Assembly: GCA_963797095.1 (NCBI GenBank)
Contig: CAWCNY010000004.1
Coordinates: 320,001-384,000, forward strand
Reading direction: 5' to 3'
Length of the DNA stretch: 64,000 bases
DNA from: an uncultured Chloroflexia bacterium
GTDB taxonomy: Bacteria; Chloroflexota; Chloroflexia; QHBQ01; JADMIH01
Shown here in pieces: positions 1 to 24,532 of the stretch. The notes beneath the pieces are model-generated. The model was not told where the DNA came from. It searched no databases and saw only the letters and a program-made list of their open reading frames with translations. Numbering within the stretch: position 1 is the stretch's first letter; every line of letters begins with the position of its first letter. Made by a program: the position numbers and the translations under genes.

Positions 1-2088
1 ATTGCCTCCGCTCAGCTTGAATTGCTTGGCTAAGAATTCCAAGTCGAGATCATCTGCCCTGGGCGACTCCGGCGGGAAGGTGCGCCGCCAGATTTCAAGC
101 CTGTCAGGTTCTTCAGGCATCGGAAATTCGATTGCCCCGTGCAGCCGTCGTATGAAAGCGTCATCCAGGTTCTTGCGAAGGTTGGTGGCCAGGATGACGA
201 TCCCCTCGTACTCCTCCATCTTCTGCAGCAGGTACGAAATCTCGATGTTCGCGTATCTATCATGCGAGTCGCGCACCTCTGAACGCTTGCCGAACAGCGA
301 GTCTGCCTCATCGAAGAACAAGATCGCGTTCGAGGTCTGCCCCTCTCGGAAAATCTTCTCCAGGTTCTTCTCTGTTTCGCCTATGTACTTGCTCACCACG
401 CTTGATAGGTCGATCTTATAAAGCTCAAGCCCCAGGTCAGTCGCGATTACCTCGGCTGCCATCGTCTTGCCGGTTCCCGGTTGCCCGGCGAACAACATAT
501 TAAGACCCTTTCCCCCCGACAGCTTGCGATCAAATCCCCATTGCTCGAACACCAGCGGCCCATAGCGCACGTGCAGGCACATCTCATGCAGCTGCGCCAA
601 TCGATCCACCGGCAGCACCAGGTCGCCCCAGGTATAGTGCGGCGTGATCTTCCGAGAAAGCGCGCCCAACCCCTGGTTCGAGTGCGCGCGACACGCTGCA
701 AGGAGATCGCGCATAGTAACCACCGCATCGACAACATCCGCAACTCCACCAGCCCTCCATTTGGCAGCGTGGCGGGCGCTGTCCGCCGCCGCCTCGATTT
801 GTTCCCCTGTCAGCCTGAAAGCTCCCGTCAACAGCGTCAGGTCAACATCCTCTGCAAGCCGCGTCGAGCCATTCAGGGCGCGCTCCCACAGCGTTCTCCT
901 GCGCTCATTCGAGGGAGCGGGGAAATCAAGCTCAATTGGCAATGCGGAGATAGCCAACCTCAACGGCAACGCCGCCCTGATATCGATCATGATGCAGCCC
1001 GGCCACTCCGACAGGAGGCGCGCAAGGTCCTGCCCTAGATCATACCCTCCTTCCTCTTGCCGCATCAGTATCACGTCGGCCTCCGACAGGAAGAGCAGAG
1101 CCCCTTGCAAGCGCGCTTCCCGCAACGTGCGATACAGCAACCGCCTCAAATCGCCTCCCTGGAGCATGAGCATCTGAGCGTCAACCGTCAGCAGCGGTCG
1201 GTTCAGCGCCGCCGCCAGGTGCTCGGCACTCGCCCGCTTCCCCTGCTTCTCAGGTCCGCGCATCCAGACAACCATCCCCACCCCGGATCGAGTGCTATGG
1301 TTGGCGCTTGATGCGCGAACTTGTCGGTTCTTCCTATCTTCGTCCTTCGCCCTTCGCCCTTCGTCCCCACTCGCCATATTGATCAGGCGCTCCATCTGGT
1401 GGGCAAGGAGCGGCAAGCTATCATGATGGCTAACGGGATATGTCACTCGCGCCGACACGCCAAGAGAGTGGTCGGGGTCGTCGTTGCCAAGAAGAAAGGC
1501 CGCGATCCGCGCGTCGAGAGTGAGCGGCCGCGAGAGGAGGGATGTATGGTGCATTGGCGAGTCGTCCAGGTGAAGCAGCAGATTGCGGCGCAACGCACGC
1601 CCTTGCCCCAACAATTGCCGCGCCACCAATTTGCTCGTGAGGCTGTCGCACCAGAGCATTGACACAAGGTCCAGCGTGGCGAACTTGCGCGTTACATCGT
1701 CCTGAATATAAGAGTAGAGATTGGCATAAGCCACATCCACTTCCGGGGCCAGTACAGTAAGGAGCATAGCGCGCTCCAAAGCCCCCAACCCATACAGGTC
1801 ACCCAGGGCCGCAAGACGGCTGCCGGCAGCGCCCAATACACTCGCCGCCCTGGTGCCGATCGTACCGTCGCTGCCTTCACCCAAGCTCCCCGCGCCGAGC
1901 GACTGCAGCCAGGAATCAACATCGCTTTCCTCGATCACAAGCCCCCGGTGCGCGGGATCGGCGTCAGGCGCGAGCGACCGCCTTACTTTGTCGATGGCGC
2001 GCTCCACCATGGCGTCCAGCACTTGCAGGTCCGCCATCAGCGCGTCAACCAGGCCGATTGCGCTCTGTTCCTGTTCAGGTCGGTCCAA
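1..2088 (-). CDS. eCIS-associated AAA+ ATPase (Afp15/Pvc15-like), truncated by the left window edge
   Basis: Not in the ORF track because it has no stop in the window. Read manually from TTG at 2088 (AAGGGG SD upstream): N-terminal LAPEVDVAYANLYSYIQDDVTRK, degenerate first Walker A GPEKQGKR, intact Walker A GQPGTGKT (~463-486), SVVSKYIGETEKNL and Walker B LFFDEADSLFGKRSEVRDSHDRYANIE. Confidence 0.9.
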   Translation of the reverse strand, partial: MDRPEQEQSAIGLVDALMADLQVLDAMVERAIDKVRRSLAPDADPAHRGLVIEESDVDSWLQSLGAGSLGEGSDGTIGTRAASVLGAAGSRLAALGDLYGLGALERAMLLTVLAPEVDVAYANLYSYIQDDVTRKFATLDLVSMLWCDSLTSKLVARQLLGQGRALRRNLLLHLDDSPMHHTSLLSRPLTLDARIAAFLLGNDDPDHSLGVSARVTYPVSHHDSLPLLAHQMERLINMASGDEGRRAKDEDRKNRQVRASSANHSTRSGVGMVVWMRGPEKQGKRASAEHLAAALNRPLLTVDAQMLMLQGGDLRRLLYRTLREARLQGALLFLSEADVILMRQEEGGYDLGQDLARLLSEWPGCIMIDIRAALPLRLAISALPIELDFPAPSNERRRTLWERALNGSTRLAEDVDLTLLTGAFRLTGEQIEAAADSARHAAKWRAGGVADVVDAVVTMRDLLAACRAHSNQGLGALSRKITPHYTWGDLVLPVDRLAQLHEMCLHVRYGPLVFEQWGFDRKLSGGKGLNMLFAGQPGTGKTMAAEVIATDLGLELYKIDLSSVVSKYIGETEKNLEKIFREGQTSNAILFFDEADSLFGKRSEVRDSHDRYANIEISYLLQKMEEYEGIVILATNLRKNLDDAFIRRLHGAIEFPMPEEPDRLEIWRRTFPPESPRADDLDLEFLAKQFKLSGGN

Positions 2089-2248
2089 TTCTACCCCTTG
2101 TCCGCGATGCTACTTTCCACCATAATACCGCATATTATTCTATTTTCGTTACATCTCTTTCTCACACGTTTGGTCTACAACTCGAAATCGCTTTCCGTAC
2201 AGGCTTCCTGAATCGTCAACCGCCCCTTGCGCCTCATGCTCCACCCCG

Positions 2249-23476: not shown

Positions 23477-23519
23477 AATCTAGCACCACTGCGTTAGCGC
23501 AGCATTAGCCACGCGTTAG
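23477..23519 (-). promoter_or_regulatory. SARP-type promoter: three heptamers (CTAACGC/CTAATGC/CTAACGC) with 4-nt spacers, 8 nt upstream of extended -10 TGcTAGATT
   Basis: Plus-strand GCGTTAG 23491-23497, GCATTAG 23502-23508, GCGTTAG 23513-23519 and AATCTA 23477-23482; directly below the SARP gene. Confidence 0.7.
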
Positions 23520-24532
23520 GGGAATGTATAGTGCGCCGCGCGCTCATGCAACTGGCACGTCACGAGCAACGCTTGTGTCTCCGCTCCCGGCTCCATCCCA
23601 AGCTCTCGCTTCAGCGTGCGCGCGCACAGGTTGTACCAGTAAAGGGCGCGTGCGGGTTGCCCCAACCTGGCATGGCTCAAGATCAGGTGGCGATAAGCAT
23701 CTTCTCGGCAGTCGTCTTGCGCCAGTAGCTTCTGCGACCATATCACAGCGCCCATATAGTCGCCCGCATCAAACGACATCCCGGCCAGCATTGTCAGAAT
23801 GGTTGAATATGCGTCGCGCAGCGCCTCTCGCCTGAGCAGCGTCCAGTCCGCATAAGGCTCGTCAAGCAGATAATCACCCGTGTACAATGCCTCGGCCTCC
23901 TCGTACTCCATCATAGCCTCCGTGAGCCGTTCGTCCCTTTTCAGCCGCCAGCCATTGTGCCAGTGCCGCTCGAACTCCTCCACGTCTACCCATAATTCAA
24001 GCTCAGGGTTGAGCATAATGTTGCTCCCCTGCGGAATCACCAGTTCCTCACCATTCGGCGGTGCGTAGCTACTGCTCAAGCTTCTCCGAAGGGTGTGCAT
24101 AACCACGCGCAGGCGGCCCTGTCCCACGGATGGAGAAGCATCAGGCCACAGCAGGTCGAGCAATGCCTCCCTCGATACCGGGTGCTTCCTGTGCCCGATC
24201 AAATACTTCAATATCGTTTGCGCCTGCCCAGGCATCTCGGCCAACACCTTGGTTTGCCCGGCCATCAGCTGGAAAGGTCCAAGCAAATACGCCCTTAGCT
24301 CCGGAGGCGCAGGCCTCTCGCGCCCTTCCTTCAGGTCCGCATCTTCGCTCAGATATGGTTCTCTAGCTTCGTTTGGCTGGTCAAGGGCATCGCCAAGCGC
24401 AGCCAGATCCTCTCCAAGGGCATTCAGCGAGGCCGCAAGCCGCCGGTATTTGGCGCGGGCCTGCGCGAATCTATCGCTAAGTGCCGAGGTTTCTCTTCCC
24501 CTCAGCCTGGCAGCCAATCCCTTCACATCCAT
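23516..24532 (-). CDS. SARP/AfsR-family transcriptional activator (OmpR-type wHTH + BTAD)
   Basis: AYLLGPFQL, SREALLDLLWPD...RLRVVMHTLRR, WVDVEEFE, ALYTGDYL..EPYADW, EDAYRHLI, LKRELGMEPG. Start at 24532 or 24583. Confidence 0.92.
   Translation of the reverse strand: MDVKGLAARLRGRETSALSDRFAQARAKYRRLAASLNALGEDLAALGDALDQPNEAREPYLSEDADLKEGRERPAPPELRAYLLGPFQLMAGQTKVLAEMPGQAQTILKYLIGHRKHPVSREALLDLLWPDASPSVGQGRLRVVMHTLRRSLSSSYAPPNGEELVIPQGSNIMLNPELELWVDVEEFERHWHNGWRLKRDERLTEAMMEYEEAEALYTGDYLLDEPYADWTLLRREALRDAYSTILTMLAGMSFDAGDYMGAVIWSQKLLAQDDCREDAYRHLILSHARLGQPARALYWYNLCARTLKRELGMEPGAETQALLVTCQLHERAAHYTFP

Follow-up and report, generated by a model that had tools for sequence, protein, structure and literature searches.

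A cytoplasmic-lineage contractile injection system of an uncultured Chloroflexia bacterium, with a probable phage-type frameshift signal and a ruler candidate

Background

Does a contractile tail without a head act inside the cell that builds it, from the membrane of that cell, or after release? The question is raised by a contractile injection system (CIS) encoded in a 64,000-nucleotide stretch of DNA from an uncultured Chloroflexia bacterium (assembly GCA_963797095.1, contig CAWCNY010000004.1, positions 320,001 to 384,000 of the forward strand), referred to below as the window. The CIS cluster, at 1-24532, consists of 20 minus-strand genes with intergenic gaps of at most 185 nt, and encodes a headless contractile tail (Table 1). 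An earlier note on this DNA had described it as an Afp/PVC-like CIS of a probable Chloroflexota genome, controlled by a SARP regulator and, given its lack of lysis genes and its three membrane proteins, either cytoplasmic or membrane-docked. Judged from its genes, we think it probable that this is a chromosomal CIS of subtype IId which the producer cell both assembles and uses in its own interior.

Gene content and extent of the cluster

Family scans identified the genes for SARP, Pvc16, one sheath, two tubes, a chaperone, DUF6760, eCIS_core and CIS_tube/LysM, as well as a VgrG-related spike, gp25, Baseplate_J, Tail_P2_I, DUF4159 and an AAA ATPase. The core set Cis1a/1b, 2, 7, 8, 9, 11, 12, 15 and 16 is present, without head genes. 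The hidden Markov model (HMM) searches that the earlier note had proposed for the cluster genes recovered the structural CIS set and confirmed, on the minus strand, the genes it had named; it had overlooked DUF6760, the nature of the DUF4159 gene and two motif-bearing low-complexity genes. The Pfam scan covered 61 open reading frames (ORFs) across the window, i.e., likely genes and small gap ORFs, out of 231 ORFs of at least 80 aa whose remainder were mostly overlapping shadow frames, and the PHROGs scan covered 30 window ORFs. Within this scope the window yielded no gene for a capsid, portal, terminase, integrase, TssJ/L/M, ClpV, holin, endolysin or PAAR, and the absences listed in the earlier note hold there. 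The only PHROG "endolysin" match spanned just the LysM motif of the tube initiator. The marks of type VI secretion systems (T6SS, subtypes i-iii), namely TssJ/L/M, a split TssB/C sheath and ClpV, were likewise not found in the window by the family scans, and DUF6760 was the only credible gene among the small minus-strand gap ORFs of the cluster.

The cluster is incomplete, because the ATPase gene runs off position 1 without a stop; 696 codons were seen, and the ATPase ORFs of the six closest relatives have 750-802 codons when counted from the first possible start. Rightwards, the co-oriented run extends into unrelated genes (methyltransferase, MmpL and TetR); the TetR and MmpL3-like transporter pair, at 25727-28887 (-), lies upstream of the cluster in the same orientation and is probably unrelated to it.

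Host and lineage

The six best ATPase loci (L001 to L006; 55-64% ATPase identity) were all from Chloroflexi/Chloroflexia metagenome-assembled genomes (MAGs), and they repeated the gene order of the window cluster. The DUF4159 protein was 89% identical to a Chloroflexia-labelled protein and an SLH protein encoded outside the cluster matched a Chloroflexia MAG (E 4e-43), in agreement with the host proposed before. The best PDB matches of the sheath were Streptomyces CIS sheaths (8BKY, E 8e-175), compared with E-values from 1e-47 to 1e-51 for those of Afp/PVC. In a quick tree with 69 sheaths (SH-aLRT support only, midpoint root, without Afp/PVC or Roseiflexus rows) the window sheath fell, with 98% support, into a set of 11 rows: seven from Chloroflexota, two from Deinococcus, one from Streptomyces, and the window. 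This phylogeny, also proposed in the earlier note, groups the system with Streptomyces, Deinococcus and Chloroflexota. By its sheath sequence it is an IId-lineage CIS, closer to the Streptomyces CIS than to Afp/PVC; the CIS identity claimed earlier stands.

The label IId was taken over from PMC12998442, where the clade was described in 2026 as the cytoplasmic CIS lineage of Streptomyces, Chloroflexota and Deinococcus. There, the relatives imaged, from Roseiflexus, Calidithermus and Deinococcus, lay in the cytoplasm without an anchor; they contracted upon lysis and were unstable outside the cell. According to the same source Roseiflexus has no close cisA homologue, and the firing mode of CisA-less Chloroflexota systems was left open (PMC12998442). 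Because that work assigns the lineage to IId and images it free in the cytoplasm, our headline, a cytoplasmic-lineage CIS in Chloroflexota, was largely known. The cytoplasmic mode put forward in the earlier note is supported by the sheath lineage and the imaged relatives, and mostly not by the evidence that the note had offered.

The Roseiflexus castenholzii CIS shares with the system of the window the phylum, the sheath lineage, the lack of a close cisA and three Sco4256-family genes close to those of the baseplate. In the parts of its description examined, nothing is said of SARP control, a DUF4159 appendage, a frameshift or a ruler (PMC12998442), and the window host is, unlike R. castenholzii, an uncultured Chloroflexia bacterium. 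The Streptomyces coelicolor CISSc (sco4242-4260) also has one sheath, two tubes, Cis7/8/9/11/12/15/16, no PAAR, and three paralogues with a single transmembrane (TM) helix adjoining the ATPase gene, and it is described as being without fibre and tape-measure genes (PMC10066040, PMC10020575, PMC12237407). The window system differs from CISSc in being one co-oriented operon, in having a TssK-like appendage and no CisA homologue, and in bitopic proteins whose C-terminal parts are immunoglobulin (Ig)-like, whereas those of CISSc carry RICIN.

A frameshift signal in the chaperone gene

The chaperone matched a phage tail-assembly-chaperone family (PHROG 508, E 2e-6), and the DUF6760 segment weakly matched P2 gpE' (Phage_P2_GpE, E 2e-4, 21 bits versus a cut-off of 23). 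Both were present in 42 loci, of which two were dropped for genes more than 200 nt apart, leaving 40 pairs with the window included. An in-phase G GGG G stood shortly before the DUF6760 Tyr-Pro motif in 40/40 adjacent pairs, versus a background of 83/2981; the slippery sequence was GGGGGAA in 24 and GGGGGGA in nine, and DUF6760 was in the -1 frame in 39. The remaining locus (L036, 17890-17963) has DUF6760 in the +1/-2 frame behind the same G-run, either a -2 slip or a sequence error. These loci form 20 clusters at 75% identity and their four-fold sites are saturated (33% identity); at five other conserved Gly columns GGG was found in just 3-10 of about 39 rows, with all Gly codons in use. ATG, GTG and TTG were absent within 12 codons in 33 of the 40 pairs. 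A Shine-Dalgarno role for the G-run was considered and rejected, since no start codon follows the run in those 33 loci. In the window copy, which in addition contains an overlapping ATG, reinitiation may occur too.

A hairpin begins 5 nt 3' of the heptamer (z -2.1 in the window). Among 26 sequences of equal length, with four of other spacing left out, 96% of the cells pair and eight show two-sided changes versus 1.9 in shuffles, for a helix that was chosen from the same sequences and overlaps conserved codons. Nine further plasmid loci gave the heptamer in 7/7 bacterial cases; both haloarchaeal loci were without it and use ATG. No DUF6760 match was obtained in the Deinococcus locus L081.

Taken at the sequence level, it is very likely that the chaperone/DUF6760 pair carries a phage-type -1 frameshift signal, and what annotations treat as a DUF6760 gene of its own, with forced starts, probably represents a frameshift extension, i.e., the C-terminal part of a predicted GT-type fusion product of ~185 aa. 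GGGGGAA is the motif of about a thousand annotated SEA-PHAGES phage chaperone frameshifts. In the literature searched we found no report of DUF6760 or of a slippery-site chaperone in contractile injection systems; subscription journals or supplements may hold one, two listed papers name an injection system, a frameshift and a tail chaperone together, and the word "frameshift" is absent from the main text of the Streptomyces CIS papers examined. The pair resembles lambda G/GT and P2 E/E+E' (PMC10885494, PMC3091744) in joining a chaperone to a -1-frame extension, in its gpE'-like sequence and in its place between tube and putative ruler. It differs from these phage modules in belonging to a cellular CIS, in its conserved 3' hairpin, which P2 lacks, and in a putative client of low complexity instead of a recognisable helical tape measure.

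A frameshift signal of phage type, one paralogue that seems broken at its 5' end and the unseen left flank would agree with a prophage tail region or its decaying remnant. We regard this origin as largely refuted and hardly credible: the cluster has the CIS markers Pvc16, DUF4157 and AAA, the 61 ORFs scanned included neither a head gene nor an integrase gene, the GC content of the cluster is similar to that of the remainder of the window, the chaperone had no match among 50,697 phage records, and the gene order recurs in L001 to L006.

A ruler candidate

In phages, G/GT chaperones serve tape measures. The corresponding slot of the window is occupied by a 1076-aa low-complexity protein without a family match (Pfam and PHROGs among the scans), which shares the same C-terminal helix with the 214-aa eCIS_core protein. 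An iterated HMM of this motif, seeded partly from loci under study, located it in 34 ORFs, belonging to 32 out of 82 loci, at most 6 residues from their C-termini. Of the 31 genome loci extending as far as Cis7, 27 had the motif gene upstream of it, and the long forms of this gene had 280-1850 codons. The motif matched no solved structure in PDB. In L083 (Deinococcus grandis; 17651-21442) one ORF of 1264 codons combines a tube domain with a motif-bearing long tail.

CISSc particles are uniform in length although a tape-measure gene was called absent (PMC12237407). In the four organisms whose particles were imaged, lengths of 217, 238, 268 and 365 nm are on record. Two cross-species pairs, 1831 aa in D. 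psychrotolerans with 365 nm in D. aquatilis and about 1235 aa in Streptomyces NBC_01426 with 268 nm in S. coelicolor, correspond to about 0.2 nm per residue, a value that is suggestive only, the organisms differing within each pair. From its slot, its variable length and its helix, we give roughly even chances to the disordered 1076-aa protein being a ruler; the candidate, new here, sits in a family reported without a tape measure.

An appendage in the CisA slot

No CisA-like protein was found in the window; the best match to the CisA-slot protein of L082, itself taken as CisA from slot and architecture, had E 0.13. The slot holds a soluble 386-aa protein without a TM helix and with 78 homologues. 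In a fold search of its model (pLDDT 91) the N-domain resembled TssK (Z 10.0, root mean square deviation [rmsd] 6.0, 158 aligned), the shoulder of a lactococcal receptor-binding protein (RBP; Z 9.7, rmsd 4.5, 146 aligned) and All3314 of the thylakoid CIS (tCIS; Z 8.4, rmsd 4.4, 166 aligned), and the head had the class I glutamine amidotransferase (GATase) fold, like Hoch_4089 (Z 18.3, rmsd 2.6, 177 aligned). As modelled, the appendage fits a baseplate-anchored short fibre or adaptor. Cys275 of the DUF4159 head was kept in 65/75 sequences, and a catalytic role may be considered. No appendage gene was found in L081-L083 (Streptomyces and Deinococcus plasmid loci); L084 encodes a homologue of the N-domain. 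The search for longer fused forms, which covered 1050-2995 aa only, gave one distant match and no fusion to the bitopic family, a weak piece of evidence. A complex prediction for the appendage and the N-region of paralogue 1 scored 0.00, which gives no verdict and is not used as evidence.

The eBAP3/4-type fibres of extracellular CIS (eCIS) and T6SS TssK are comparable in that the gene lies 3' of Tail_P2_I and the N-domain has the shoulder fold (PMC12923769); unlike the eBAP3/4 fibres, the window appendage has no shaft and bears a GATase-fold DUF4159 head. DUF4159 is absent from the main text of that paper. These likenesses bring in a second explanation, a released eCIS whose particles would exit by lysis (through genes elsewhere or self-lysis), bind targets with the TssK-like/DUF4159 short fibre and inject polymorphic cargo. 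The fibre-slot gene is directly 3' of Tail_P2_I, its anchor fold is common to TssK, phage RBP shoulders and tCIS All3314, the arrangement matches the eBAP description (PMC12923769), and some homologues have coiled-coil-like inserts between anchor and head. The predicted head, on the other side, has a GATase fold and not that of a known adhesin, and the imaged relatives contract on lysis and do not persist outside (PMC12998442). Overall, we judge release rather unlikely.

Three bitopic membrane proteins

Three proteins with one hydrophobic helix each are encoded at 2249-7613. The three are paralogous, with 33-39% identity, and the section comprising their Ig-like N-region and the helix aligned with a Streptomyces plasmid RICIN-domain protein encoded beside a CIS ATPase (probability 99.6, E 1e-23). 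By sequence they are Sco4256-58-family paralogues, the assignment being made via Streptomyces plasmid homologues (RICIN, hydrolase) and not Sco4256 itself; the 30 plasmid matches of the family were from Streptomyces and kin (23), Deinococcus (five) and cyanobacteria (two). A fold search with paralogue 1 returned generic Ig-repeat proteins only, and the Ig domain is not CIS-specific, since related repeats also occur in secreted proteins. The 5' end of paralogue 2 appears frameshifted near 5950, where a family-typical N-terminus is split over two frames by a sequence error or a real break.

Among 150 family representatives the N-domain was detected in 122, and in 108 of these every helix came after it; Lys/Arg residues before the helix were more numerous than after it in 75 of the 108, equal in 23 and fewer in 10. 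In Deinococcus kinase and FHA domains precede an entire bitopic protein in one fusion, encoded beside a Cis12 that itself bears FHA, and 14 representatives picked for their extensions included six with a kinase, three with FHA but no kinase and one with CHAT. Two Deinococcus CIS loci show long forms: kinase-FHA-Ig-TM-Ig repeats in L081 (11628-17449) and, likewise, a long fusion of the family in L083 (2662-8174). The kinase/FHA arrangement of L081 resembles the phospho-threonine control of T6SS. The Sco4256-58 architecture had already been noted in Chloroflexi. Sco4256-58 were published as tube cargo on the ground that the triple deletion left the tubes mostly empty, and Sco4256 is listed among membrane glycoproteins. 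The predicted N-in topology, the fusions and the glycoprotein listing point to receptor-like N-in proteins; we keep a receptor or transient-dock role open, besides which, or in place of which, they could serve as cargo, the role published for Sco4256-58.

The same proteins would be central to a stably membrane-anchored, T6SS-like machine, in which a minimal trans-membrane dock firing outward would be made up of the TssG-like Cis12, the TssK-like appendage and the N-in bitopic proteins. The genes follow in that order, with a 2-nt gap before the bitopic gene (overlapping in L004); the TM helix after the Ig region (108/122), the Lys/Arg excess before it (75 vs 10), the fusions to kinase, FHA and CHAT domains and the listing of Sco4256 all accord with it, and a haloarchaeal CIS is membrane-bound (PMC11566945), to which the N-domain homologue of L084 may be added. 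That CIS, from Halogeometricum borinquense, has a related sheath, chaperone, DUF6760 and appendage N-domain, but it is membrane-anchored with a six-TM anchor candidate (PMC11566945), and it has no slippery heptamer and, in the region compared, no Sco4256-family gene. A stable anchor appears improbable to us. R. castenholzii has three family genes and unanchored particles (PMC12998442), deletion of sco4256-58 empties the tubes, and the retained chaperone frameshift and the ruler candidate point to particles of fixed length; both haloarchaeal loci are without the heptamer. A membrane-docked CIS is not established by the three membrane proteins, as their family is published cargo and the R. castenholzii particles are free.

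Cargo and lysis beyond the window edge

In all six closest relatives the ATPase gene is followed, within the 4.2-9.8 kb available, by genes for proteins with a shared N-terminal leader: 16 such ORFs in L001 to L006 and none in the window. A further 21 ORFs in other loci match the leader more weakly. Family matches of the 16 comprise eCIS_core, endonuclease, PT-TG and OmpA, some of these ORFs having nuclease or pre-toxin domains, and the leader is a candidate loading signal. By analogy with these arrays cargo genes are likely just left of position 1. The 29 proteins scanned from L001 to L006, of which 23 are encoded past the ATPase, gave no match to a lysis family, and a credible holin-like ORF in the same orientation was likewise not found past the ATPase in these loci. 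One tyrosine-recombinase match was located 9 kb beyond the ATPase of L001.

For a released particle, then, speak the cargo arrays in 6/6 relatives and a left flank that is unseen; the lack of lysis genes in the relatives speaks against it, and nuclease/coiled-coil cargo (Tme, Sle1) is also described in Streptomyces systems that affect the producer. The lack of lysis genes in the window, on which the earlier note had leaned, is a weak argument for the cytoplasmic mode and cannot decide it, because the cluster is cut and relatives carry cargo arrays past the ATPase.

SARP gene and operon promoter

A near-consensus sigma70-type promoter precedes the SARP gene, as judged by consensus match. Between the SARP stop and the rest of the operon are three heptamers with an 11-nt period, followed after 8 nt by a -10-like hexamer, the only such triple in the window, and the AfsR geometry equals that of this triple (PMC11301090). 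SARP homologues occurred in 13/80 ATPase-centred loci, in 12 directly upstream of the ATPase gene; the flanks of the six closest relatives stop short of the SARP end. The small ORF 3' of the SARP gene had family HMM matches in 12 loci, 10 of them with SARP, and its protein led in the Atlas to unnamed Chloroflexota clusters at 0.88. Heptamer triples in 12 relatives were near-perfect in two (19/21 pairwise matches), with two at 17, one at 16 and seven at 15 or fewer, counts for which no null was computed. BTAD regulators were already known at eCIS loci, BTAD being an eCIS shell domain; the putative SARP-type promoter in front of the operon is new here. The SARP control claimed earlier is supported by the sequence of a winged helix-turn-helix and BTAD regulator, by direct repeats 8 nt before the -10 and by the recurring SARP linkage.

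Proposed mode of action

In the cytoplasmic model that we favour, the SARP would bind the heptamer repeats and switch on the operon. Ribosomes would make chaperone G and, by -1 slippage, GT; both would cover the disordered protein of 1076 aa and act as a template on which the tube polymerises to a set length, of roughly 215 nm should the ratio of 0.2 nm per residue apply. The ATPase would load cargo, probably leader-bearing proteins encoded left of the window. Particles would float free and, under stress, transiently engage the cell's own membrane, the part of CisA being taken by the bitopic proteins together with the TssK-like appendage; this is the weakest step. Firing would damage or kill the producer.

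Several observations weigh against parts of this model. The SARP repeats are convincing in only some of the 12 relatives, and the ruler motif was missed in 4/31 loci and in 6/9 further plasmid loci (found in 3/9). A fibre-slot gene with a baseplate-anchor fold is present, as used by released particles, and S. coelicolor is without such a gene. Co-occurrence of the appendage with bitopic genes is not strict: between appendage and ATPase, L005 and L006 have no bitopic gene, and L081-L083 gave no appendage gene. The leader-bearing cargo arrays of the six closest relatives are compatible with outward targeting, and the Roseiflexus paper leaves eCIS-like action open (PMC12998442).

Other features of the window

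Tandem repeats of 7 nt are numerous and mostly intergenic (1338-1363, 12045-12165, 13920-13955, 19092-19132, 19706-19731, 20321-20352, 43512-43731, 56555-56587 and 60956-61023); one type has 14 occurrences versus 0.11 expected, 13 of them inside the CIS cluster. Rfam matched a group II intron domain fragment (43294-43368, +) and an Acido-Lenti-1 RNA (60472-60517, -). A divergent TrpA-like protein (30080-30823, -) scored below family cut-offs and has no trpB neighbour, and at 45825-49546 a MocR-type regulator is divergent from pdxS/pdxT, an ordinary vitamin B6 unit.

Table 1 Features of the CIS cluster, in order of transcription
Feature	Position	Strand	Basis or remark
Sigma70-type promoter upstream of SARP gene	24732..24760	-	11/12 consensus matches, extended -10; consensus match only
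SARP-family activator: N-terminal extension, Trans_reg_C, BTAD	23516..24532	-	Family scans
SARP-box-like promoter	23477..23519	-	Three heptamers, 11-nt period, 8 nt, TG-extended -10-like hexamer
Small conserved protein travelling with SARP gene	23059..23385	-	~108 aa from likely GTG start
Pvc16/Cis16 cap, C-terminal carboxypeptidase-regulatory-like domain	22065..23045	-	Pfam
Sheath (Cis2)	20347..21954	-	Pfam; 8BKY E 8e-175; tree
Tube (Cis1a)	19788..20252	-	Family scans
Tail assembly chaperone, gpG/gpE-like, 132 aa	19286..19684	-	PHROG 508, E 2e-6
Slippery heptamer GGGGGAA, in phase, just before chaperone stop	19289..19295	-	Locus comparison
Conserved 3' hairpin, putative frameshift stimulator, starts 5 nt past heptamer	19248..19283	-	Covariation
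DUF6760, P2 gpE'-like segment, -1 frame	19125..19289	-	DUF6760 E 7e-11; Phage_P2_GpE E 2e-4
eCIS_core (DUF4157) protein, ends in conserved C-terminal helix motif	18456..19100	-	Start uncertain, within 7-nt repeat
Second tube/tube initiator (Cis1b)	17959..18390	-	Family scans
Low-complexity protein of 1076 aa, C-terminal helix conserved; ruler or tape-measure candidate	14641..17871	-	
CIS_tube + LysM initiator (Cis7)	13968..14627	-	Pfam
VgrG-related spike (Cis8)	12167..13894	-	NF033848 above cut-off
gp25 (Cis9)	11597..12001	-	Pfam
Baseplate_J wedge (Cis11)	9581..11542	-	TIGR02243 above cut-off
Tail_P2_I wedge (Cis12, TssG-like)	8826..9533	-	Family scans
Baseplate appendage in CisA/fibre slot: predicted TssK/RBP-shoulder-like N-domain and class I GATase-fold DUF4159 head	7616..8776	-	
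Sco4256-58-family bitopic protein 1	6027..7613	-	Ig-like N-region, TM ~289, Thr/Ala/Gly-rich linker, Ig-like C-region
Family paralogue 2 (Sco4256-58 family)	3430..5868	-	Pro/Thr-rich linker, large C-terminal domain
Family paralogue 3 (Sco4256-58 family)	2249..3421	-	E 1e-17 to Streptomyces plasmid RICIN-domain protein (7-protein set)
AAA+ ATPase (Pvc15/Cis15), cut by window edge	1..2088	-	

Implications

A bolder combination of these elements is conceivable, and we consider it unlikely. It has two parts. A hidden phage length-control module, formed by the frameshifted G/GT chaperone and a disordered ruler with a conserved C-terminal plug helix, would have been kept by CIS of the IId lineage and of its relatives, which span methanogen-related archaea and several phyla of bacteria. 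In CisA-less Chloroflexota a TssG-TssK-like arm would dock on Sco4256-family membrane receptors and so trigger firing, a proposal that, taken by itself, is also speculative and to our minds doubtful. If the combination were true, Sco4256-family receptors would sense the outside and, in other lineages, signal via fused kinase, FHA or caspase-like domains, and the published "effectors" would be receptors for a programmed-death syringe.

For the known systems, the putatively frameshifted chaperone and the motif-bearing disordered gene offer a testable mechanism for the uniform length of CISSc (PMC12237407), and the TssK-like appendage with the receptor-like bitopic proteins provides concrete candidates for CisA-less firing, which was left open for the Chloroflexota (PMC12998442). 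The system itself extends a known clade; the finding is of value for a frameshift signal that spans the family, for the ruler candidate and for a set of appendage and possible receptors without CisA.

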